A stretch of DNA of 63,785 nt, the filler included, from Collodictyon triciliatum (Eukaryota): NCBI GenBank assembly GCA_043381765.1. It is 16 parts of 16 records of this genome, joined end to end, with 100 filler letters (N's around TTAATTAATTAA, not from the genome) between each part and the next. Parts side by side here need not be neighbours in the genome. Positions count along the whole stretch, not along the records: positions 15,979 to 19,924 come from JBHJMP010006747.1; 15 more parts are not named here. The stretch is one strand, 5' to 3'. The notes beneath the pieces were generated by a model that saw nothing but the letters and a program-made list of their open reading frames with translations, was not told where the DNA came from and ran no database searches. Position numbers and translations under genes: made by a program. Positions 15,834-63,000 of the stretch are shown here, in pieces (positions within the stretch are counted from its first letter, which is position 1; each line of letters opens with the position of its first letter).

Positions 15834-15978
15834 CTTTTTTCTTTTCTTTTTTCTTTTCTTTTTTCTTTTCTTTTTTCTNNNNNNNNNNNNNNNNNNNNNN
15901 NNNNNNNNNNNNNNNNNNNNNNTTAATTAATTAANNNNNNNNNNNNNNNNNNNNNNNNNNNNNNNNNNNNNNNNNNNN

Positions 15979-17443
15979 AAAGCAAGGCTCGTTACAATTC
16001 CAGTGTGTCCACTTAATGTTCTAATTAATCTTCCATCAGATATGTTGGTAATTTTTATTGTTTCATCGCTACTTCCTGATATAACACTAGTTCCATCCGT
16101 TGTGGTTACAAGACAGTATATGGACTCACTATGGACCAAGAATGATTTGATCAAAGACCCGTCGTCAACATTCCAAACTTTAATCGATTTGTCATTGCTT
16201 CCAGAAATTACTTTGGAGCTATCTGGTGATAGTATTAATGTGTTAACGACATCTGTATGTCCAATTAATGTCCTGATTAAATTGCCATTTAACAGATTCC
16301 ATATCCTAATGATATTATCTGAATGCCCTGATATTGTTATTGATTTCGATTGAGACGAAGTTATGCTTGAAATTCTAGAGCCTCTTGAGTATATAAGAGA
16401 TCCATCAGAAAGATTCCAAAGTCTTACAGTTCGGTCATGGCTTCCAGAAATAATTTTTGAGCCATCAGGGGAGACGAAAACACTCAATACACGATGTAAA
16501 TGACCAGTCAATGTGAGAATCAAACCTCCATCGGAAATATTCCAGATTTTTATTGTACTGTCCCAACTTCCAGAAACAATTTTTGAACTATCAGGAGTAA
16601 GAAAGGTACTCTCGACTCTCGATGAGTGGCCAGTCAGTGTGCGAATCAAAGTTCCATCAGAAAGATTCCAGATTTTGATTGTTCTATCATCACCACCAGA
16701 AACAATTTTTGAGCCATCAGTAGTTATAGCAACACTCCAAACCCAATTAGTATGACCAGTCAATGTGCGAATCAAAGTTCCATCAGAAATATTCCAAATT
16801 TTGATTGTAGTATCCCAACTTCCAGAAACAATTTTTGAACCATCAGGAGAAACAGAAACACTCCTAACAGTACTAGTATGACCAGTTAATGTGCGAATCA
16901 AAGCTCCATCAGAAAGATTCCAGATTTTGACTGTATTATCCCAACTTCCAGAAACAATTTTTGAATCATCTGTAGAAGCAGCAACAGTGTAAACCCCACT
17001 TGTATGACCAGTCAATGTGCGAATCAATGCTCCATCAGAAAGATTCCAAATTTTGATAGTATAATCCCAACTTCCAGAAACAATTTTTGTGGAGTCATAT
17101 GTTACAGCAACACTAGTAACATCATTACTATGACCAGTCAATGTCCTAATTAATGCTCCATCGAAGAGATTCCAAATCTTGATAGTTTTGTCTAAGCTTG
17201 CAGATATTATATTCGAGCCATCAGGCGAAATTGTAACACCACGGACAAGGTCTATGTGACCTGTTCCAACAGTGTAAATCGATGATACTTGCCCTTTAAC
17301 AGGACACAATTGGCAGTGAAGCATCAATCCTAAAATTATATTATTAAAATTCTATGTAATTTGTAGTCAATAAAATTAAAACAAATAATTTGTAACTCAC
17401 CCAACAGCAACAGAGCTGCAAACGACTTTGAGTTCAATCTCAT
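15979..17443 (-). CDS. Signal-peptide-bearing WD40-repeat protein, 3'-partial (exon 1 17443-17401, exon 2 17329-15979)
   Basis: Splicing gives MRLNSKSFAALLLLGLMLHCQLCPVKG-QV, followed by about 11 WD40 repeats of 42 aa/126 bp (LIRTLTGHxxxVxSV...DGSKIVSGSxDxTIKIWN). Confidence 0.92.
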
Positions 17444-20024
17444 TCTAAACTAATGTGATGAGCGTTTAAAGATTTATACAAAATTTTATGAAGTGATGTA
17501 ATACCCAATGAACCCATTTTCTTTAACAACTAATATTGAATCATTCTACTCAATTATCATTGATTCATTCAAAAATACATAGATAGATTATCTTCACATA
17601 ACTTCAATAATACTCATATAATAAAATCTCTCAAAATCTATAAAATACTCTTATTAATATCCATTGATAAACATGACCATTTCATTTGATGGTATAGTGA
17701 CTTATTCAATTAATTTATTTATATTAAAAATGCAAAATAGTCATCATATCAAAGTAAATCGATATCAACTGTTAGTTGATATAATTGATAAAAATTCATT
17801 AGACTTCGGTTATATTTTTAGCAAGGTCATTTTTGTATCAATTATAATTAGATTTTGATTTGATATTTATAGGAAAATCACTAATCAATTATTAGATAAA
17901 TCATGCCTTAAAAACAAATCAATCAATTTACGACATACGGAAAACAATATTAAGTATGGGACTCATGCAAATAAGCCTTATTGTGAATAGAACATGAGAA
18001 TAAATCAAAGGAAAAATCAAGCAAAAGTTTAAATGATAGGATAATACATGTTTCAGTTTGAGAAGAATAGGTCTGCTTCGTCTAAGTGATAAATCAATAA
18101 ATTGTGGTGACCAAAAATAGCTGACGATTCCACAACAGACTTTTTAAATCAAAATATATCACACCTATAATTAAAAAATATGGAATTAATTATTATTATT
18201 CAAACAATTGCACGATTTTAATAGGATTCAATATGATGAAACAGTTATATGTTATGTATATCAGGAAATTAAATCTATAATAAAATTATGAATAAAACAT
18301 GTTATCAAGGAAAACCGTGTCAATCATTTGCTTACATTTTTCACATTTCGTATATAAATATTGATAAAGTAAAGAAATAATTAATAAATTGGTTGTTCAA
18401 TCATGTATTCTTTATGATGATTTCTTAATGCACAAAACATCCAATATTTTAATTAATCGACCAAAAATACATCATATATTTAATTTGTTTTTTCAGCATT
18501 CCAGAATTGGATTAGCGGATTATATGATATTTCAAAGTAAGAAGTGGTTAATGGCATATAATTTTAATATCTTATCGATTGTTATATTGATTAATCATGA
18601 GATTTATGGGAATAACATTAAAATTAAAATGACATATACGATAATTAATTTAAGTGCAAGTATTAATAGATTCTTCATCAGATGAATATTGTAAAATATA
18701 ATTTCATGAGATATTGTTTACCAGAATCAGTGATATCCTTTGATTAATTGCTTTATTTGTTGAACATTTATCTTAATATTCCTCTAAATGGAAAACTATA
18801 AATACCAAGATATTCCAATAAAAATTAATCAAGCTATTATTAATTATTCATTATCACAATGTGCATATTCGTCGAGATACACTGATTCAATTCGTTTATT
18901 GCTTCCGTATAATATTTATACATATAATTAATCAGACAATCATAACTTTATAATAGTCATATTATTAGATAACTTACTCTGATATAACGATAAAATAATT
19001 ACTGTTCGCTTGACTATATCGAATGAATATCATACAGGAGCAAACAGAAATATTTCCTTTAGAACATGGATTTCGATAATATCTGATAGAAATTAAAATT
19101 ATGATTTAATGTAACTTAGCAAATTGTCTTTCAGTTAACTATATTATTGATTATATATAAAATATTTTAACCCTTGAAGTATAACCGTCTATGTACAAAA
19201 TAGGGGCTCAAGCGATGAACTACATCCTAATATTCAGTAAATTTTCAGCAACCAATCGATTGTAGTATTAAAAGATGTTGTGTGAGTATTGGATATCATC
19301 TCTAATAGATTTCATGATTCACAACCAGTTTCAGAATTATTATGCATTTATTTTCCTGATTCATATCAATTATTATCTCATTCCCTATCATAAGTCCCAA
19401 ATATAGTGATTTTTAATTAATCTCTCTTTAAAGTGACATATTTGTGACAGTAACCATATTAATATGATTCATCGAGCTAAAACCAGCTATACTAATCAAA
19501 ACCAAATCACTCTGATAAAAAATTGTTCTATTATTATGACTTTTAATAGTGATATGTTTAATGTAAATCATATATTTCATTGAGATTTTAAGACTGTGTG
19601 CTATAAAGTTTCTTTGGAGCTTTGAATAGAATAAGTCTATTGCACTAAGGTTAGTACTAGATTTTGATACAAAATATAATTATTACTATGATAAAGGAAA
19701 CACAGGTCTGAATATTAATAAATTTACTATCACAATCGTTTCAACGGTAATTTATAATTGAAAATTTAGTCATTGAGGTATTTTACGTGTGCATCAATAC
19801 AGAGATAATGTTCCTAGTTGAAAACTGATGAATAATAGATAAAGAAATTAAATTGTAATCGTATTTAATACTTGTACTCTGCCATATTTTGACCAAACAT
19901 AATAAACTGAACACTATCAGACTTNNNNNNNNNNNNNNNNNNNNNNNNNNNNNNNNNNNNNNNNNNNNTTAATTAATTAANNNNNNNNNNNNNNNNNNNN
20001 NNNNNNNNNNNNNNNNNNNNNNNN

Positions 20025-48033: not shown

Positions 48034-48393
48034 TTATGTAAAAGGTCTAAAGGGGTGTCCGGTTGATGCAAGCACGTAAGCCTGACCCAAGTCTTGAATG
48101 CCTGAGCCTATCTGTTGTGCATTTTTTAATTTAAAATCTGTATTTCCTAAAGTCGATAACCCTCGCCCCAAGTAATTCGTCGCTGTAATTGCTGTTACAA
48201 ATGGGTTTGTAATTGTTTGAATTGCTGGTTTAACACCAGTTCCTTGGAGGGCTAATTCAACAAGTCCACCGCTAGCTTTATTCAAAGTTTGATAACCTCG
48301 GTCGATTCTGTCAATCCTGTTCATCACGTCCTGTGTATTTCTTGTTAGGAATCGCCCCACGCCCCTGGCCATTTTTCTCGCGTCTACAATCAT
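48034..48393 (-). CDS. Small intronless hypothetical protein, Gly/Thr-rich and amphipathic
   Basis: MIVDARKMARGVGRFLTRN...GHPFRPFT*. The start codon is uncertain (48393 or 48372). Confidence 0.7.
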   Translation of the reverse strand: MIVDARKMARGVGRFLTRNTQDVMNRIDRIDRGYQTLNKASGGLVELALQGTGVKPAIQTITNPFVTAITATNYLGRGLSTLGNTDFKLKNAQQIGSGIQDLGQAYVLASTGHPFRPFT

Positions 48394-48476
48394 ATCATTG
48401 TAAACATTTTTTTTAAAAAAAAATGTTTGCAACAATTGCAATATCATTACATACAAATTAATTTATTGCTCATAAC

Positions 48477-51404
48477 ATGGATGCATTTTTACAAGAGAGA
48501 ATAAAGTTTAACGGAAGTACTTTAGATTTTGTAAAACAGAAGTTATCAAAAGGAACAGGAACTTTAAAAATAGATGCACTTCTGGCATTACCAGGATTTG
48601 ATACTCTTTCAAGAAAAGCAAGTAACACTAACTTTTTATTAAATTGGATAGCACAAATAAGATATGGCACTTATGAAAGAGCTAATTTAGTTATTAACCA
48701 ATTTATCGCTGCTAATCAAAATGATCCTAATGCAATATCTGCATTTGTACGGGATGAATGGGGTAATGCTAGATTAGATAAAGATACTCTTCTCAGAAAC
48801 GTAGCGACGACCATGGACGTAGAAATTGCAAGAAGGCAAAGTATCGGTGAATTGCCCCTATACCCCTCTGCTGCTCCTACTGTTGCTCCTGCTCCCGCTG
48901 CTCCCGCTGTCCCAATCTTTGCCGCTGCAAATCAATTAGAATATGGAACTGCAGAGGATTACAAAAGAGCCGTCAAAGAAATAAATGGCGTCTTGCCAAC
49001 TGGAAAAGCCAATCTAAGAGATCTAAATAAGTGGCAGGAAATATTAAATAGTGTTCGACAAACACGAGCTCAATTAATTGCAGAAATACAACAAGCCTAT
49101 CCAAGAGGCGACCCAAATGAGTACATGGACAAAAATAATAAAGAGTTGACACAATTTATAAAACTATTACCTGCTATTAAGGACGAACAACAGGATCCAA
49201 GTCTAGCACCTGGTCCAGTATTTGGACCTCAAAGTCCGGCACCTCAACCAGCCCAATCTGCTGCTAAACAACCAGCTCAACCTCAACCTCAACCTCAAGC
49301 AGGTTCTGATAATGATACATATGAAATTCCTGTTCTAGGGTTGACTAATCTAAATAAAAGATTAATAAAGTATATCTATGTCATTTTATATAAAAATAGA
49401 AACTTTCCGGAAGTTTTACAACGAATGCAAGATCAAAATAAAAAATATCAATATATCACTTATTGGTTGAACTTCATTTTTCATTATTATGGAAGTCAGG
49501 ATCCTACTTTTATTGATAATGCCCGACGAGACATAGTAGAAAGAACTGCTGTTTTACCAAGTAGGTACAAAATGCCTATGCAACTTTATGATATGAGTGA
49601 CATCACTCCTCAATTAGAAAGTGACATACTAAAAACTCATGCTTTGGCTATTCAAATGCCATTGGATCAAAAGACTATTCCAGTAACTCTTACAGAAAAT
49701 GCTCAGGGGGTATTTGATGAAAATACTATAGATGTTAACATGACTGGAGAAATTCGGCCTGCTGCAAGTCCAGCTATTCAAAGACAAGGCAGCTTTTTAG
49801 CGGCTGTTGCAACTAGCCCCATTATGCCTATTGCAATTCCAACAACAACAACACCCGCTAGACCTACTCCTGGCCCAATTGCACAAAGTGGAACTAGACC
49901 TCCTAGACCTCCTATAACCCCCGGGCCTGCTGCTGGGCCGGCATTTGCTACTCCGGTTATTCAAAGGTCTAGACCAGCAGCAGGCCAACAAAATCTAATT
50001 TCTCCACCTGACCCAAATGCAAGCGTTGCTGATGCGTCGTTTGTTTCTGCTCAATCGAATATTCCTAGCCCTATAGATACGTCTGTCCCTGTACAATTGG
50101 GACCAGGTGCTTTTCAGCTATCTGACTTGGCTCAAGCAAATGCACATATTGCTGGACTGCATAATCAAATAGGTCTAAAAGATGTTGAAATTGCGAATAT
50201 GCAAGCTGTTGTTCAACAGGAAAGAAGAGACGCACAAATCGCTACAAATCTAGTTGAGCGACTTACAAATGAAAATGATGCATTAACACTAGAAAGTGCA
50301 GCTCTTCAGAATGAACGTGATACTTTGACAACTCAAAGGGACGCTTTACAGGCTGAACTGGATAATGTAAAAGCCGCATTGGAACAAAATGAAGAGACAC
50401 TAGAAACTATTACTAATCAAAGAAACCAATTTCAGGAAGAAAGAGATACATTGTTACAACAAATAAATCAAATTCGAGCATCAAATCAACAAGCAGTATT
50501 TAATACAACCGAGCGGGCTAAAACACAAATTCAAGAAAGAGATGCACGTATACAAGAACTTGAGACAGAGATAGAAAGACTACAAGGTGAAAATGAAACA
50601 CTAACAGATGAAAAAAATAATTTAGAAGCTCAACTTTTGGAGATTACCCAACAATTAGAAAATGCAGTTCAAGGTAATCTGCAATTACAACAACAAATTC
50701 AACAACAGAATGCACAAATGGGCAACCAACAAACTGAAATAGATAGACTCAATGGATTAATGAGAGAGTATCACAATTTAGCTCAAAGAACACAGACAGA
50801 TCTACAAAATCAATTAACGGAATTACAGGGTGATTTTGATACTGCTGTAAATAATTTAAATGAAGAGAAAAACATGGTAGGAAGAAGAAATAATATGATT
50901 ATACAACTTCGAGAACAATTAGCTAGAGCTGAAGCATCGGCAGAACAAGGAGGTAGAAAGACCTTTTCGGATTTACGAAGAGAACAGGAGTTACGAGCAA
51001 GAGCTGAAGCACTTTATGCCGAAACAGATCGTATAGCTCAAAGAATGATTGAAATGAATGAACAAGAAATAGAAAGACTAAAAGCCGTTATCGCTCGTAG
51101 GCGACAAGAAAATGACGATTTAGTTTTAAGGTTAGCAAATGAGAATAGACAAAGTACTGATTTGACCCGACAATTAGAAAGAAAGGATGAAGAAATTGCT
51201 GAACTAAATATTGAATTAGCTGCATTACATAAACGCAATGATGACATAGTTATAGAAATGAATGAAAGAATAGCCGCATTAACAGGCGGACCAGATTGGG
51301 AAGACGTTGATGATCCATCTAAACAAAAGAAAAATCTTAGTAATGATATGCCACCAAAAAAAATATCCGAGATCTTGCAAAACAAGATAGAGCTAAGTTG
51401 TTAG
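48477..51404 (+). CDS. Large intronless hypothetical protein with Pro/Ala-rich linkers and a long coiled coil
   Basis: 975-aa ORF with consistent A/T-ending codon bias and a heptad-like E/Q/L-rich region of about 380 aa. Confidence 0.85.
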   Translation: MDAFLQERIKFNGSTLDFVKQKLSKGTGTLKIDALLALPGFDTLSRKASNTNFLLNWIAQIRYGTYERANLVINQFIAANQNDPNAISAFVRDEWGNARLDKDTLLRNVATTMDVEIARRQSIGELPLYPSAAPTVAPAPAAPAVPIFAAANQLEYGTAEDYKRAVKEINGVLPTGKANLRDLNKWQEILNSVRQTRAQLIAEIQQAYPRGDPNEYMDKNNKELTQFIKLLPAIKDEQQDPSLAPGPVFGPQSPAPQPAQSAAKQPAQPQPQPQAGSDNDTYEIPVLGLTNLNKRLIKYIYVILYKNRNFPEVLQRMQDQNKKYQYITYWLNFIFHYYGSQDPTFIDNARRDIVERTAVLPSRYKMPMQLYDMSDITPQLESDILKTHALAIQMPLDQKTIPVTLTENAQGVFDENTIDVNMTGEIRPAASPAIQRQGSFLAAVATSPIMPIAIPTTTTPARPTPGPIAQSGTRPPRPPITPGPAAGPAFATPVIQRSRPAAGQQNLISPPDPNASVADASFVSAQSNIPSPIDTSVPVQLGPGAFQLSDLAQANAHIAGLHNQIGLKDVEIANMQAVVQQERRDAQIATNLVERLTNENDALTLESAALQNERDTLTTQRDALQAELDNVKAALEQNEETLETITNQRNQFQEERDTLLQQINQIRASNQQAVFNTTERAKTQIQERDARIQELETEIERLQGENETLTDEKNNLEAQLLEITQQLENAVQGNLQLQQQIQQQNAQMGNQQTEIDRLNGLMREYHNLAQRTQTDLQNQLTELQGDFDTAVNNLNEEKNMVGRRNNMIIQLREQLARAEASAEQGGRKTFSDLRREQELRARAEALYAETDRIAQRMIEMNEQEIERLKAVIARRRQENDDLVLRLANENRQSTDLTRQLERKDEEIAELNIELAALHKRNDDIVIEMNERIAALTGGPDWEDVDDPSKQKKNLSNDMPPKKISEILQNKIELSC

Positions 51405-51429
51405 ATCCCCAATTGAAAAAGAAAAAAAA

Positions 51430-51833
51430 GCATTTCATGGAACTCCAGGGGCATATATGCAAACAGATGAATATGCACAAAAATATGGCAGGCCATTTGC
51501 TCAGTCTCCTTCTCCCTCTGATTTTGTAGCACCAAGTCCTAATGTAGACGCTTTACTGGACCCCAACCGCCACCCTAAAATGTTAAGCCCATATAAAAGC
51601 AAAGCACCAAGTCCACCTATGTACGGTCAAAGTGGGGCTGGACAACCTGTTCCAATAAATCCAGGTGCTAGTCCAATAATTACAAATACAAGACCCGGCG
51701 GAACTGCACCAACGGGTGGCTTAGGAGGAGCCGGCGGTGCTCCTGGTGCAGGAGGTCCTGGTGGTCCTCTTGGTGGACCTTTTCTAGGTCAGAATCCTTT
51801 CGGTAATCCTTTCGGTAATCCTTTTGGTGGGGG
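51430..51833 (+). CDS. Pro/Gly-rich ORF with PPxY and NPF motifs, probably a continuation of the upstream frame, 3'-partial
   Basis: AFHGTPGAYMQTDEYAQ...SPPMYG...QNPFGNPFGNPFGG, with the same codon bias as the upstream ORF. Confidence 0.65.
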
Positions 51834-52325
51834 NNNNNNNNNNNNNNNNNNNNNNNNNNNNNNNNNNNNNNNNNNNNTTAATTAATTAANNNNNNNNNNN
51901 NNNNNNNNNNNNNNNNNNNNNNNNNNNNNNNNNTATTTTATTATTTTATTATTTTATTATTTTATTATTTTATTATTTTATTATTTTATTATTTTATTAT
52001 TTTATTATTTTATTATTTTATTATTTTATTTTTTTTGTTCATTCAATTCAAATCTCAGGAGGCTGAGCCATACACAATCATACACCCCCCGGTAACCATG
52101 AATATCTAATGTTCCTCATGCTGCACTTTCTGGCTGTGAACAATATGCAACATATAGCATACCGTGTGTGGGCTCTGGAACGGATGATTTATTTAGAATT
52201 TAGAAAATATCCTCCCTTGGAATGTGAATTTATTTATTTTTGTCGATTTGTTACCATATGAAAAACTTGCGCGTGGGTGTAATAAGAAAATCTTTTTGTG
52301 GGTATCAAAGGGAAGGAGAGTAATC

Positions 52326-55917: not shown

Positions 55918-58900
55918 AAAGTACACAATATATCCCACCTTTGTAGTCTCCAGGGTTGTCGTGGAGTGTTGGTCCCTGAAAAATAAAGCCTGCAAACATG
56001 ATGCTGAAGGTCACCAAAGTCAATTCCCTTTGTCTCCACTATCGAAAATGGGTCACTCTTTTGGTACGAGTCCCTAATGATAAATAAAAAAGTTTTTTTT
56101 TTTTTGGATTTAATGTCATCATATCTTTTGTCAATACTGACGTTTCGACATTTTATACTGCTTCACTGCTCTCAATTTTTCTATTTATACATCAACATAA
56201 AAGGAAACTATACGATAAAATAGCATGACAGTAATGTTTTTCTTCAAAAAAAAAAATAAACAAATAAATAAGAAGCTACATAGATGGACGAGAAAAATCC
56301 AACAGTGGTGTAGATTGCGCGTAATCCAAACTGCGTTTTCGTTGATAAGACTTCCAGAGGAAATATTCCTATCATCGATGGGACAATAGAAAAGTGTCTG
56401 AAAACATGTCCCAAGACATTGATAACACACGATATAATAACCTGTTCAAGAGAGTGATATATACGAATGCATGAATTACAACTTGATTCTACAAGCAATC
56501 GACCGCCATACCCTAACAAAGTACACCAACAATACAACTACAATCAACACTGCCCAAAACACCAGGTAAAATAGAGCCCCTCCTAACTTATCCGATGCAA
56601 TCCCACCAATCGTATCTAGAAAATAATCAATGATTTGTTCAATGAGCAAAGTAATGTGCATACCAAAAACATATGTTATTCGTGGACAAAATCTCCATCA
56701 AGGAGTACTGACTTACCGCAAGAAGAATGCATGTATCCTTCATCACACGAATATGGACACTCAGAAGAAGCCCATCCATCTGTCGTGTAATACGCATGTT
56801 CAGGCGCATTTGCGCACTCGAAGCAATCTGTATCGGTGGCCCTGCTGTACGTGCCAGCTTTACATTCCACACAGTTGAATCCGCCTCGGCCACCGGGGCA
56901 CGATGTCCACGTTATGGTGCCGTCTTCACCATCTCCTTTCTCTGCATCGTCATCATATACATCAGCATATGCACCAGCATCTACTTTCCAAAAAACAGCA
57001 GCCTTTCTCTCAGCTTCAATCTTGTCTGCATCGTCAACTCGATGGACTCTTTTTGCAGCCCCGCTCCTTGCAACATCCCCACCGCCGTTTCCGCCGAAGG
57101 CCGAATACCCACCGATGAAATCCAGGATGGGCTCGGACCCGTCATCGGGCGAGACATACTCTACCTTGATTCGCCCACCGCCGCCTCCACCTCCGCCAAA
57201 CCAGCCGTCTCCTCCGTCTGCGCTGATCCTGCCTGATCCGAGGAACGACCGAACTTTTGCAGAGACGAATCCTCCGCTCCCGCCGCCGCCTCCGATGGGT
57301 GTGCTCGATGCGCCGTTTGGCGACCCCAAAGAGACCAGCGAATCATCCGCTGCCGAATCACCGTCTGCCATGACTATCCCGTCCACCCGAAGAACAGCTG
57401 CCCCTTCCAAAGAAATAAAACCTCCTCCGTCTCCGCCAATCCCGTCCGGTCCTCCGCCACCGGACCCGCCGATATCTGTATCGAGGCTGGCTCCATATGT
57501 CGCTCCACCTTTGGAGATGGCGCTGCCTGTCATTCCAAGTCCGCCTTTCCCTCCAAACCCGGCGCCTCCGCCAGAGACGTTAGGAACAGTTTCTCCGGCA
57601 CCTGGTCCGCTTCCGCTTCCACATCCAAGAGCTATGGATGAATTAGATGCAATCGTCAGGATGGAATAACTGTGCGTTGATATAAAGAAGGTTCTTTCAC
57701 ACGGCAAGGTGGTAAGGGGGCAAGAAGATAATGCAGGAAATAAACTTCAAATAATTAGTTACTGAAGGGATGGCAGATATGATGGAAATTCATAAATTGT
57801 ATGTATTTTTGGGTATCGTCATCAATCATCATCAATATTATTGTTAAAAATTCCATATGAACGAAATGGTTCGTTCATACTGGGCGTAATTTCAAGTGAA
57901 CGAGGAAAAAAAAAAAAAAAAGGGAAAATCTTGTTAACCTGAAGATGCAACAACACCATAAATGAACAAAGAATTGGCAGTCATTTTGATATATCCTCCT
58001 TGTACATAACCATTGTCATTAATTGTCAAAGTCTGCAGAGCAGTCAGAGAAATAAACTCCGAGGGATACCCTTGACAAAATCGAGACGGTAAAAGGATGA
58101 CACCGCTGATGTCGATTGTATTCGCTACGATGGCGATTCGAGTCGCACGGATGATTGAGAAAACACTGGCATAAACTGTTCTCATGTTGATCAGATTGAC
58201 TTCGTCGTCCGCAATGATAGAGCCCTAGAGAAGACAAATAAAACATTAGATTATCACCATAGTTTCTTTTTGTAGGTTTTTTTTTTTTTTGGTTACAGCT
58301 TATTACAGCAATTTATTTGAATCGCATGTGTATGATAACAAGTTGAAATGATCACCGATAATTCTATGTCTCCATCGATAACCTTCAAATCATCTCCTAT
58401 CTCTATACGCCCATTTTCGAGCACTTGTATATTAATCGACCCACTATCCCCTCCACTAAATGCCAGAAGAGTGAGCGTGCGCTCAGCCAAGAAAAGGGCA
58501 TTGGATGCGACCAATATATCACTAGTGTAGATTTGTTGGATAGATGACTGAACTCTTAAAATGCCATAAGGGGAGACGACCACAGCATCCTCAATCAGCA
58601 CATTTTGGATGACCTTTGATTCCACCTGTGATGGGACATAAATGAATGCAAATCCATGGGCATCAACAGTGAGCTTTCGAACTGGGCTTTCTAAGAACGG
58701 TAGATAAAGTGGCGTTTCGAACGACTTTCCTTCTTGATTGTGCGCAAAAAGATGCAGTTGTTTCACGTAGTATATAGTTCCACCTCCAGCTAGAATATCA
58801 CAGGTACTCCTGCCACCAAAGACAGATGTGTAATCACTATTCTGTGATGCCTGGTACCACAACGCAATCCGACCACCTGCACCAGCCCCAGGTTGCTCAA

Positions 58901-59801
58901 GATTTGATGACGGACTTACGGCATCTCCTCCGTTTGCAGATATTAAATAATCTGATGGATTGAACAGAGTGTTACACCTGATTTGAATCGAGCCACCACC
59001 GCCACCGCCATTGTTCCCTTTGCTTTCCATTCCATTGGCGGTTATCTTGGAGCTTTGTAACTGAATTCGGTCGCACTCGATCTGAATCACGCCACCTCCA
59101 TTACTACACAGCTGAGTCTGTTTGCAATCAGTATAAGCGGATGCTTTGGATTTCGATATATCGTATCTGTAGAATGGATACTTAATTGGTTGTGCTGCAG
59201 TATTTCTCTCCCTTATAGTACTGTTGTTATCTGATAAGAATCCAGGCTGGCCAGCCTCGATGGGGTATTCAAAGCTCCCAAATGCCCATGCTTCAGAAAT
59301 CGACCTGCCACAAATCGCACCATTCCCACCATGGGCACCTCCGCTCATTGGACCAGAGAAGTCTGTGACATTTGCAAATTTACCAAGTCCATCAGAGTTT
59401 ATATGAGACCGTCTAAGTGTGATAGTGTTTCCATATATATTAATGAAGCCAGCCAGAAGTGTGGTTGAGTCTAGCACAATGTTATTTTTTGTGGCGATAG
59501 ACAGATACCCTTCAATACCGGCTGATATGTAACTCGATTGGAAACTGCCAGTAGATGAGTCTATATTCATGGATATGACTCCTCCTCGGGTATTCGTCTG
59601 AATAATACCGCTGATTTGAAAAGAAAGTGGACAGGTGGCGCTAGGCGAAGCAGAAGGCCCGAGGCTTATCGATGATGCAGACCATACTGATGTCGAAGCC
59701 ATAAACAGAGCTGACGAATTCATATGAAGAACATAATCTGATGTAATATTCCCATAAATGAGCACATCACAGTTGGAATTTATGCGAAGGTTTTGGTTTG
59801 G
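55918..59801 (-). CDS. Large glycine-rich membrane protein (family of plant glycine-rich/'ephrin type-B receptor'-annotated proteins), partial at both ends
   Basis: Repeated SGGAHGG, GGGVI, GGGGGGSI and GAGGRI blocks. Then CPGGRGGFNCVECKAGTY...C..C.NAPEHAYY...CPYSC..GY...C, followed by hydrophobic segments. Confidence 0.8.
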
Positions 59802-59901
59802 NNNNNNNNNNNNNNNNNNNNNNNNNNNNNNNNNNNNNNNNNNNNTTAATTAATTAANNNNNNNNNNNNNNNNNNNNNNNNNNNNNNNNNNNNNNNNNNN
59901 N

Positions 59902-60016: not shown

Positions 60017-63000
60017 GGAGCATTCCAAATTTCAGTGGTATACTGGGTATCCTTGAAATAAACCTGTCATCCAATCAACTAGGCGGTATGAATATGCTCT
60101 AGTTTATATATTTTCCTTTTTTAATTTCATCTTTTCCCTCTTAGCCTTTCTTTCATTTTTATTTTTACCATTTTGTGTTTTCTGTTCTTCCTTTTATCTT
60201 TTCATATTCATTACGTATGTTTTATTTAATTTATATTATTAAAATTCAATACAATAAAGGATCAATCCCAAGTTTTGATAATCTCCCGAACTGCGAAACG
60301 ATTGACCTATCGAACAACCAATTGATAGGTGATAATTTTGATGTAATTTTTATAACCAAGAATAATTTTTTGATACATTCTATTTTCTTGCTCAAGAATT
60401 TTTGTATATAAAAAATAGGCACAATATCAGATTCTTTGAATCTTACTGGGGTTCATGTTATTGATTTTTCTGACAATAAATTGTCAGGTAAGTGCATTAT
60501 ACTCCTTGATTCAACTTCATATGCTTTTTTATTTTTCAAGTTGATACTCCTTTCTTTCATAGGAACTATTCCAAACTTCAGTGGGTTACCAATTATCGAA
60601 ATTATAGTATTATATTACAACACTTTAAAAGGTTTGTATTTTTTATCGCAACGCGATTTTTTCTAAATTTACCTGATTAATATAAAAGCATTTGAATTTT
60701 AAAATATTTTAATAAACTCAATTTGGGCTTAGGAAATATTCCAGACTTTATAAATATACCAAACTTAGTTGAGATGCATTTGTACGGAAATCAACTTAAT
60801 GGTTGTTTGATTCAATTTCTCTAATTTGTCTCAAAATATTGAAAATTTTATTTTATTTCTTGTTGCGCTGTAACAAGTCTAATATGATTTTACAGGAACT
60901 GTCCCTGATTTTTCTAATCTGAAGAATCTGTTCGGGCTATTTATTCCAAAGAATCAGATAGAAGGTGATACTCATATCAAGAATTATGCGCCCCTGTATT
61001 TTACATTATAATAGTGATTGATTTGTGGTTTTGAAAAATAGCTCTAATTCAAAATATAGGCACTATCCCAAACTTTACAAGTCTCTTAAGGCTCGAATAC
61101 TTTTATGCATTCGATAATAATTTGAAGGGAAGTATCCCTAGTTTTGAGAACTGTCCGTCCATGCATGAGATCGAGAAAGATAGCAATACATTGGACGGCT
61201 CGTTGCCTTCACTGGATTTATGTTCGCTAGTGTCCATTGACGTAAGCGAAAAAGAAATAGCAGGCTCTATTCCATTCAATTGGAACATACCAAATATTGA
61301 GTACATTTATTTGTCATTCAATTCATTGGAAGGGGACGTACCCACCAATTTCGGAAATTTCGAAAACTTGATACATCTTGACCTATCACATAATCAAATC
61401 TCTGGAAGTATGCCAACAAGATTATGGAATCTCCCAAAGCTTGTAACGATTGATTTGAGAAACAATTCATTTAATGGAGAAGTTAGTTCATTTATCATCG
61501 ATTTCAACGGAAATCAAGAGTATTACTTTGAAAATCTTATTCTTGATGACAATAATTTCTTTGGAGAGGTAAATTGGAAGTTTTTTGAATTTTTTGAAAA
61601 CCTCAAGACCTTCAGTTTGAGAAATAATCGAATCGAAAGACTTGAGGAGCCAGGGGTTCCAATAAGTTGGATTAAATTCGATGTCAGTGGAAATCCTGTG
61701 GCTGGAAGCATTCCCGAATCATATAGCCGTTTTTTATTCATCGAATACTTTGGACTGCAAAATACATACATGAATCACGGGACTTCAAATTTTATTCCTT
61801 CATTCATGAATCAAACAAGCACATACACTCTAGAGAAGGTATCCGACGCTTTTACATGTCCCTCTATTGTTACTATTTTGGGGTCAGTAGAAACCAAGGT
61901 TGATATGAATCCAGAGTACTTTAGCTACGGACTTTGTAAATGCCTCCCAGGATATTTTGGATTCGGAAATAAGTGTGTTGAATGTCCCAAGGAGTGTGAT
62001 TGTCGAGACAGAATATCTTTAAAAAAGTGCTTTTTTACTCCTACAGTCACAAATATTGTGGATATAGTTCCTTGCATGAATCCAGAAATTTGCACATTCG
62101 ATATTGATAACTCTATGGAAATGAGAATGGAAGTGTATAATGGTACTTTTGTTTTCCCCTGCAAAGAGGGATACACAGGAAGGAGCTGTTCTACCTGTGC
62201 AGAGGGTTATCTTTTTGATAGTGGGGAGTGCAACCTGTGCTCTTCTGATTATTCAACTCTCAAGATTATCGCATTTGTCGTAGCTCTCTTTTTTGGCATC
62301 TTGTATCAAGTGGGAGCAGCTTGGATTGGGGAAAGTACACAAGAGGATGAGGAAAGCGTACCAGATGACGAGGAAGTTCAAGAACAAGATTCAGGTATAC
62401 CAAACATATAATTATAATATTTCAAATTTTCTAATTTTTTTTATTTTGCGCAGCTTCCGTGGATATTTTCTTATTTTACACTCAGATTCTTCAAATTCTG
62501 GGAAATATTGTAACTATACCAGATATCAACATTGCTGGCAAATTTGTTGGTAATGTTTTTTCGCTCAAGCTACCAACTCTTGAATGCATCGTCGGTAATC
62601 ATCCCCATATCACGTCTCTTTTAAACTTGGCTCGTATACCTTCAATTCTCCTTATCGCTGTGCTGGGATTGAAGAAGTTTCTAGCGAATGGGGACAAAAG
62701 AAATGTTGAAAAGGTACTGAACATTCATTTTTTGTTTAAATTTATTTAAGTTGCGATAAAGGATTCAGTTTTAATACATATATTCTACGCTTTTTTTAAA
62801 ATATTAATATTGAGAGCAACCATCCAAACCTATAGGTGGTGGCAGTTATGTTCATTTTTTTGGAAGGTACTTACTTTTCCGTAGCCCAAGATGTCATAAG
62901 CACCTTCGGATGCACTCTATACGATAAAGGGTTTGAAAAATGGTTTGTGAACACGTACCCATGGATTCAGTGTGACCCTGTGACAGACAGCTATGCTAAA

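Follow-up and report, generated by a model that had tools for sequence, protein, structure and literature searches.

Among the closest described counterparts of the WD40 array reported here are the HNWD/NWD proteins of Podospora anserina, in which 126-bp units carry four variable codons spaced 2-16-2 (PMC1805685, PMC12222747). These papers place the variable codons of the NWD repeats, numbered 7, 9, 25, and 27, on the top face of the propeller (PMC1805685), list seven variable WD40 positions, and give 80 to 100% identity between HNWD repeats (PMC12222747). Highly repetitive WD40 propellers are widespread in bacteria and fungi (PMC9218822). Two groups of membrane proteins are also relevant. CRMPs (cysteine repeat modular proteins) combine cysteine-rich modules with nine transmembrane helices and an external N-terminus, and exocytosis of rhoptries and mucocysts depends on them (PMC9815656, PMC9670195). 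For fission-yeast Pkd2, grouped with the fungal Flc proteins in Pfam PF06011, nine helices are predicted in addition to a signal peptide and an outer domain (bioRxiv 2022.08.11.503631), and the protein passes Ca2+ on membrane stretch (PMC9727806). In the literature covered, which took in few subscription papers, we found no description of a WD40-headed receptor with a cysteine stalk and a CRMP-type core; WD40 goes unmentioned in the accessible part of a survey of choanoflagellate GPCRs (bioRxiv 2025.04.15.649019), and in that of PMC4046975 CRMP and WD40 come up in separate, unrelated contexts.

The window analyzed in this study is a stretch of 63,785 nucleotides from Collodictyon triciliatum in which contigs of approximately 3.9 kb are concatenated with N-spacers; it derives from a eukaryotic assembly of 75 Mb in 14,576 contigs. 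The focal gene lies on the minus strand of contig C6747 (15979-19924). Exon 1 (17401..17443, 43 nt) holds the ATG at 17443 and the first half of a signal peptide, and is followed by a phase-1 GT..AG intron of 71 nt with 85% AT (17330..17400), assigned from the sequence and by comparison with paralogues. Exon 2 starts at 17329 and is open to the contig end at 15979; its first part (17292..17329) encodes the remaining half of the signal peptide, which closes with a cleavage-type V-x-G before Gln28, and this V-x-G lies within a motif shared by 34 paralogues. Seven WD40 blades of 126 bp each with a homogenized framework form propeller 1 (16380..17261), and blades 8 to 11 (15979..16379) belong to a second, non-variable propeller, whose blades are position-specific and conserved across paralogues and which is cut by the contig end. 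The spliced frame contains 464 open codons and 11 WD40 blades up to that point, and the C-terminus is absent because the gene is cut off by the end of the assembly contig. An artificial N-spacer adjoins it (15879..15978), and the DNA to the left of the spacer is not a continuation of the gene. Pfam detected nine WD40 stretches in the focal protein (E = 2.8e-96), and the 25 families listed out of 49 matching ones were all propellers. This score and the return of the pattern in 568 blades, spread over 93 contigs, together put the array beyond chance. The exact 126-bp spacing proposed in the preliminary description was recovered by TRF (period 126, 5.4 copies, 80% match), and the small separate exon that it had assigned to the signal peptide gives the N-terminus claimed there when spliced, with the GT and AG kept in paralogues. 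Its statement that repeats 2 to 7 are highly similar needs qualifying by the degree of nucleotide identity, which was 67 to 85% among blades 2 to 6 and 61 to 67% for blade 7 in one 126-bp framing, and is thus below the 80 to 100% quoted for het-d/het-e.

The last 222 nt of the focal gene are 97% identical to contig C2722, which runs on to 21 blades and a cysteine stalk. This match indicates, at the sequence level, that the focal gene is a member of a three-propeller subgroup, and we infer from the paralogues a stalk and membrane core for the focal protein, both of which would lie beyond contig C6747. The closest paralogues of the focal gene have three propellers. C2722 and C11993, the latter with a 114-nt overlap at 97%, were both considered as direct continuations of the focal gene and rejected, as identity of the locus could not be demonstrated in either case. 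The AT-rich 2.4 kb upstream of the gene (17444-19924) are 82 to 93% identical to the upstream region of C2722, indicating that the duplications take in long flanks.

The split leader is conserved in the family. Sequences matching the exon-2 motif were found at 34 places in the genome, all 34 of them preceded by AG in phase 1, and the exon-1 motif occurred within 200 nt at 29 of the 34. In all 29, GT stood exactly 43 nt after the start of this motif, and 27 of them retained the ATG; the paralogous introns measured 68 to 83 nt, and their retention would cause a frameshift in 14 and a stop in 11 of the 29 paralogues. In the two exceptions, C11643 and C2001, AGG replaces ATG, and these copies are pseudogenes or assembly errors. 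After splicing, the leader starts basic, continues into a hydrophobic core, and reaches V-x-G ahead of Gln28, where a cleavage site is predicted by the -3/-1 rule. This test anchored on the exon motifs replaced an earlier gene-model search optimized for hydrophobicity, which was circular. Contigs from runs X1 and X2 cover the upstream DNA and cross the donor site with many differences; their sequence resembles genomic DNA, either from a relative or from a paralogue, and carries no information on splicing. A reading in which the focal copy is cytosolic, truncated, secreted only, or dead, with a start at the exon-2 Met or an end near the contig end, could draw on an in-frame Met that exon 2 has at its start, on a C-terminus lying off the contig, and on the existence of broken copies in the family. 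We consider this reading very unlikely, because just 20 of 34 paralogues have the exon-2 Met, whereas exon 1 and both splice sites are kept, the 464 codons are open, and the closest paralogues continue into stalks.

We then compared propeller 1 with the fungal repeats. The residues listed in the preliminary description as variable after GH and in SGSxDx were all present in the focal blades, where the hypervariable positions are 4, 5, 7, 23, and 25 (G of GH taken as 1). In 568 family blades on 93 contigs that agree with the consensus at 26 or more of 42 positions (945 blades at the loosest threshold of 19), entropy peaked at positions 5, 7, 23, and 25 (3.2–3.8 bits), with 2.9 bits at position 4, and the residues between the variable sites were conserved (0.75 bits at position 6 and 0.16 bits at position 24). 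The variable sites were chosen from the same data that were tested, and their spacing agrees with that published for HET-E. The 2-16-2 spacing with conserved middles corresponds to codons 7, 9, 25, and 27 as matched by spacing and flanks, so that positions 5, 7, 23, and 25 match the hypervariable codons of the d-a loop and the b-c turn of HNWD. The earlier assignment of the variable residues to HET-E-type top-face sites thus agrees with both the spacing and the entropy peaks. In 10 three-propeller genes, the variable positions had a mean entropy of 1.6 to 2.7 bits in blades 1 to 7 versus 0.2 to 1.1 bits in later blades. These comparisons show that variation, as far as it can be read from sequence, is confined to the outermost propeller and to four predicted top-face positions of HET-E type. 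There were 391 different four-residue combinations in 422 blades. The variable sites were enriched in Trp, Tyr, and Arg and depleted in Leu, Pro, and Cys, with Trp at 8.8% versus 1.8% and Tyr at 13.9% versus 5.1% expected from base composition; an adenine-specific pattern like that of DGRs was not seen in codon usage.

Despite these parallels, the family is not HNWD. Neither NACHT nor HET was found upstream of the focal WD40 array, and the ATG exon leads straight into WD40. HNWD proteins are cytosolic and carry HET/NACHT, whereas the WD40 domain of the family is N-terminal, predicted to be extracellular, and equipped with glycosylation sequons. The family shares with HET-D, with HET-E, and with HET-R the 126-bp units and concerted evolution within and between genes, as well as the 2-16-2 variable codons, but its repeat identity is lower than the range given in PMC12222747, and where a gene has two or three propellers, homogenization is limited to propeller 1. 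By sequence, the blades come closest to highly repetitive WD40 proteins (WRAP type) from bacteria and fungi, many of them named NACHT/STAND or kinase WD40, and neither the membrane core nor the cysteine stalk occurred in any of the 120 nearest relatives listed.

Exchange of blades was examined by third-position identity. For propeller 1 in seven genes (one further gene was dropped because its blade 7 was not located), the identity was 0.82 between blades within a gene, 0.82 between the same blade in different genes, and 0.81 between different blades in different genes; the corresponding values for propellers 2 and 3 were 0.44, 0.75, and 0.44. Propeller-1 blades therefore lack positional identity, which indicates concerted evolution across positions and genes. 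This result shows, from the pattern of third positions, that blades of propeller 1 were exchanged between positions and genes, so the proposed diversification by repeat exchange stands for propeller 1 only. At the variable codons, the nucleotide identity to the same blade in another gene was 41% in propeller 1 versus 83% in propellers 2 and 3. The nearest neighbor of a blade lay on the same contig in 23% of cases versus 1.7% expected. We also considered the NACHT proteins of the genome as blade donors; in 12 stretches, their WD40 units differed from the family blades (approximately 45 aa, scoring 5–27 bits versus 26–93 bits for family blades).

Selection on the variable positions was assessed using an MG94-type grid test on 326 blades with at least 31 of 42 residues identical to the consensus and on three subsets of 150. 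The framework was under purifying selection (omega 0.22–0.24). At position 7, beta exceeded alpha in five of five fits, with LRT values of 54 to 137, and a separate fit gave an LRT of 20.5, which supports diversifying selection at this position as judged from codon changes. At position 5, the LRT values were 8.4, 10.1, 0.4, 14.5, and 4.5; significance was lost in one of four framework-tree fits and the separate fit was not positive, and diversifying selection is here likely. Beta was high at positions 4, 23, and 25, but alpha was high too, and there was no significant excess under site-specific synonymous rates; when alpha was fixed at the framework mean, all five variable positions exceeded 1 (omega 1.7–15). 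The expectation of dN/dS above 1 at the variable sites is therefore firm for position 7 and mostly borne out for position 5, whereas positions 4, 23, and 25 are not significant with site-specific alpha. Short conversion tracts or multi-base changes may lie behind the raised synonymous rates near both loops. A binned pairwise pN/pS analysis was set aside since conditioning on framework identity biased it. The raised synonymous rates and the lack of significance at three of the five variable sites would fit a neutral explanation, in which the top-face loops are unconstrained and scrambled by gene conversion. Against this stand 500 null sites from simulation, among them hypermutable sites and sites unlinked to the genealogy, in which the LRT reached at most 28 and exceeded 20 in two cases, so that position 7 lies above every neutral, hypermutable, or unlinked simulation. 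The enrichment of Trp and Tyr with depletion of Leu, Pro, and Cys, and the presence of only two stop-containing blades beside 568 open ones, also argue against it; the neutral explanation is largely refuted and, in our view, extremely improbable.

The architecture beyond the focal contig was deduced from other members. A genome search with two blades as the query gave 185 matches, 150 of 3,266 candidates having been scored, and a search with the membrane core gave 97 matches on 92 contigs among the matches listed, some of these contigs perhaps representing alleles or pieces of a single gene. The C-terminal half of one such member is encoded in the window on contig C6748 (20194..23916, minus strand), where the last WD40 blades (23916-23016) are followed by an Ephrin_rec_like stalk (about 23015-21532; PF07699, 14 stretches, E = 1.9e-70), DUF7630 (about 21531-21388), and a nine-helix core (about 21387-20373), then a short cytoplasmic tail and a stop. 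We treat it as a second member of the family, and the adjacency of the two contigs within the window implies no linkage. We further sampled 80 stretches on 79 contigs, 20 picked from the WD40 matches and 60 from the core matches. WD40 and core stood in one reading frame on 45 contigs, and a stop or frameshift lay between them on eight, which are pseudogenes or assembly errors. WD40 without a core in the stretch was found on 13 contigs and the core only on another 13, of which 12 had a frame still open at the 5' boundary of the sampled stretch, one was broken, and none had an intact 5' end. The 45 complete frames contained 7 blades in 21 cases, 14 in 8, 19 to 21 in 11, and other numbers in 5; a stalk was present in 44, and its length was 0 to 2,018 residues with a median of 564. 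Taken together, these frames describe a family of approximately 90 loci that very probably encode surface receptors with a signal peptide, one to three WD40 propellers, an Ephrin_rec_like stalk, DUF7630, and a predicted nine-helix core.

Some members depart from this plan. C2488 (L038, 2-5176, minus strand) has at least 41 WD40 blades, two neighboring ones being 100% identical, and no stalk up to the contig end. C4786 (L043, 3-3647, minus strand) has seven blades and a stalk followed by a non-core segment with FG-GAP/integrin-type repeats by eye, for which there was no Pfam support among the 25 Pfam rows listed. In C2122 (L092, 177-2378, minus strand), a propeller is fused straight to the membrane core without a stalk.

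A model of the core built on a deep alignment has nine long helices (pLDDT 94). The hydropathy and the enrichment of Lys/Arg in most alternate loops fit an N-out, C-in topology, with helix 2 being weakly hydrophobic. The nine predicted helices led us to drop an initial 7TM/GPCR-like label and set the core apart from adhesion GPCRs, which have seven. A shallow model (pLDDT 66) found no match in the fold search, and for the good model Foldseek returned nothing at E ≤ 0.001, with TMq of 0.13 to 0.19 in the rows for GPCRs. The best structural match by VIA, Hrd1 (Z = 7.7, rmsd 7.4, 191 aligned), was within background, and a sequence search of the PDB matched essentially the cysteine modules alone. 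In the atlas embedding, the core fell near DUF7630/PF06011 clusters (0.95–0.96), and a full-length member scored 0.81, which is a lead at most. A profile search with the core returned 13,845 clusters at E ≤ 0.001, with Rigifila, Mantamonas, and Thecamonas among the named relatives. The uncharacterized DUF7630 multi-pass proteins of these and other protists have the same core with swappable heads, but no canonical WD40 array occurred in the best 150 of the 13,845 clusters; the 22 relatives scanned with Pfam carried RCC1, FG-GAP, PQQ-type, LRR, TIG, Filamin, or DOMON heads, or none.

The paralogues, in parts lying outside the focal contig, share several traits with CRMPs, namely Ephrin_rec_like modules, DUF7630 next to the membrane, and nine predicted helices with the N-terminus outside. 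TgCRMPa/b, Plasmodium CRMP1-4, and Tetrahymena CRMP1/2 likewise have a large cysteine-rich ectodomain with Ephrin-receptor-like modules, a juxtamembrane cysteine knot, an internal C-terminus, and binding modules at the tip (PMC9815656, PMC9670195). We compared the CRMPa core (runs of about 400 residues in supplement file 5 of PMC9815656) with the family consensus by eye, without an E-value, and found motifs in the same order: a pattern of cysteines next to the membrane, KI within helix 2, paired Cys residues in the loop that follows helix 4, G-x-P within helix 5, and F-L-x-x-G with WE and RK after it. The family core therefore bears a strong resemblance to CRMPs and has a predicted CRMP architecture, with homology judged by eye and without a statistic. 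The differences lie mainly in the head: the tip of CRMPs consists of MAR, Kringle, or lectin domains, whereas that of the family is a canonical WD40 propeller, and there are two to four CRMP paralogues versus approximately 90 family members with a head under concerted, diversifying evolution. CRMPs form A/B heterodimers with accessory proteins, and their function is known in alveolates alone. Alternatively, the core might work like fission-yeast Pkd2, as a ligand-tethered mechanosensitive Ca2+ channel that opens directly when the bound head is pulled. The likeness to Pkd2 speaks for this, as do PF06011 matches in 5 of 65 aligned core relatives (E ≤ 0.01) and 3 of 22 other long relatives; however, PF06011 matched neither the C6748 member nor other family members from this genome, and the Ig/ML-like outer domain of Pkd2/Flc is absent, the N-terminus consisting instead of a WD40 propeller head on a long stalk. 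We regard a direct channel as rather unlikely; it differs from our preferred reading, a repertoire of contact receptors, in the output step alone and is compatible with it.

The location of the propeller was then evaluated. The sequon Asn-x-Ser/Thr directly follows Trp in six of the seven blades of focal propeller 1 and in 417 of 568 family blades (73%), compared with 33 of 1,454 blades (2%) in NLR-type homologues from 120 listed proteins. The split leader, the sequons, and the N-out core of nine helices agree with one another, which points to a glycosylated ectodomain. An extracellular location of the focal propeller, a domain normally found inside cells, is thus a supported prediction that combines the conserved signal peptide, the sequons, the cysteine stalk, and the modeled membrane core, in line with what the preliminary description had proposed. 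Its more specific wording, a secreted or surface domain, is upheld for the surface by the nine-helix membrane core in paralogues, and secretion is unlikely.

The best reading of these data, which we favor with moderate confidence, is a diversifying repertoire of contact receptors with putative ligands and outputs, and propeller 1 quite probably is its diversifying binding head. The outer propeller would bind ligands while held off the membrane by the stalk, which would set the reach, and propellers 2 and 3 would be structural. Specificity could differ from one paralogue to the next, the targets being surface molecules on other cells, most likely prey or parasites. Recognition of prey, pathogens, or kin, raised in the preliminary description, is a candidate role. 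Via the CRMP-type core, binding may set off a response to contact, for instance Ca2+ entry, regulated exocytosis, or engulfment, by analogy with the role of CRMPs for rhoptries and mucocysts. The host is flagellated, as contig C953, on which a family member is also found, encodes an axonemal dynein. This dynein is 85% identical to one transcriptome protein and at most 60% identical to the other 119 listed. In its fullest form, offered tentatively and by analogy, this scheme would have a recombining WD40 propeller of HET-E type mounted on a CRMP-type contact sensor, with blades shuffled across approximately 90 genes and perhaps clone-specific, and with recognition of prey or parasites leading to extrusome discharge or engulfment.

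Two other roles of a variable surface domain were weighed. The propeller could be a variable surface antigen or decoy that escapes viruses, predators, or parasites rather than binding to them. The large family with birth and death, in which 8 of 79 contigs are broken and 2 of 29 paralogues have lost the ATG, would suit such a role, and the surface antigens of ciliates and Giardia have long cysteine-rich repeats. An escape antigen would, however, be expected to spread its variation over exposed surfaces, whereas here variation is limited to a distal binding face rich in Trp, Tyr, and Arg, and propellers 2 and 3 are 83% identical at the same codons. We therefore consider this role unlikely. Recognition of kin, of self and non-self, or of mating partners, as a surface counterpart of het-d/het-e, would involve the same positions and the same concerted evolution as reported in PMC1805685. 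However, approximately 90 paralogues with 391 of 422 combinations distinct would fit a broad set of ligands better than a few balanced alleles, and we identified no partner locus; this possibility appears quite unlikely to us. For the contact-receptor repertoire, the ingredients are each known separately, and their combination and scale did not appear in the literature covered. The HET-E mode of diversification would operate on an extracellular eukaryotic domain, with propellers 2 and 3 of the same genes as an internal control, and the CRMP core, known from parasite invasion, suggests a general contact-sensor scaffold of protists with swappable heads. A defined, readily expressed seven-blade domain with four candidate specificity positions and hundreds of natural variants would make ligand screens straightforward. 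To our knowledge, prey choice and parasite detection at the cell surface of free-living protists are largely unknown at the molecular level. The family, if read correctly, would provide a molecular handle on selective feeding by protists and an outward-facing counterpart of fungal NLR diversification.

We also noted other repetitive protein families in this genome. Of 44 NACHT matches in total, 41 passed the Pfam threshold, most of them in frames of 1,000 to 3,400 aa (e.g., L154-L159 and L162-L167), and several of these proteins continue with pentapeptide-like repeats, distinct WD40 units of approximately 45 aa, and Sel1-like repeats, as seen by eye. An expanded NLR-like family thus appears to exist beside the surface family. 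An LRR array with a cysteine-rich segment and a hydrophobic helix was observed at 61035-62411 of the window (plus strand) and at L142:5614-6927 (minus strand), with LRR assigned by Pfam for the open reading frame in the window, possibly representing a second, LRR-headed receptor family. Three long open frames abut at 48034-51885 of the window (plus strand), including one for a 980-aa coiled-coil-like protein without a Pfam match; such an arrangement is unusual in an intron-rich genome. Glycine-rich repeat proteins without a Pfam match are encoded at 56676-57746 and 58293-59849 of the window (both minus strand); the first ends in a cysteine-rich segment, and the two are possibly ectodomains of another surface family.
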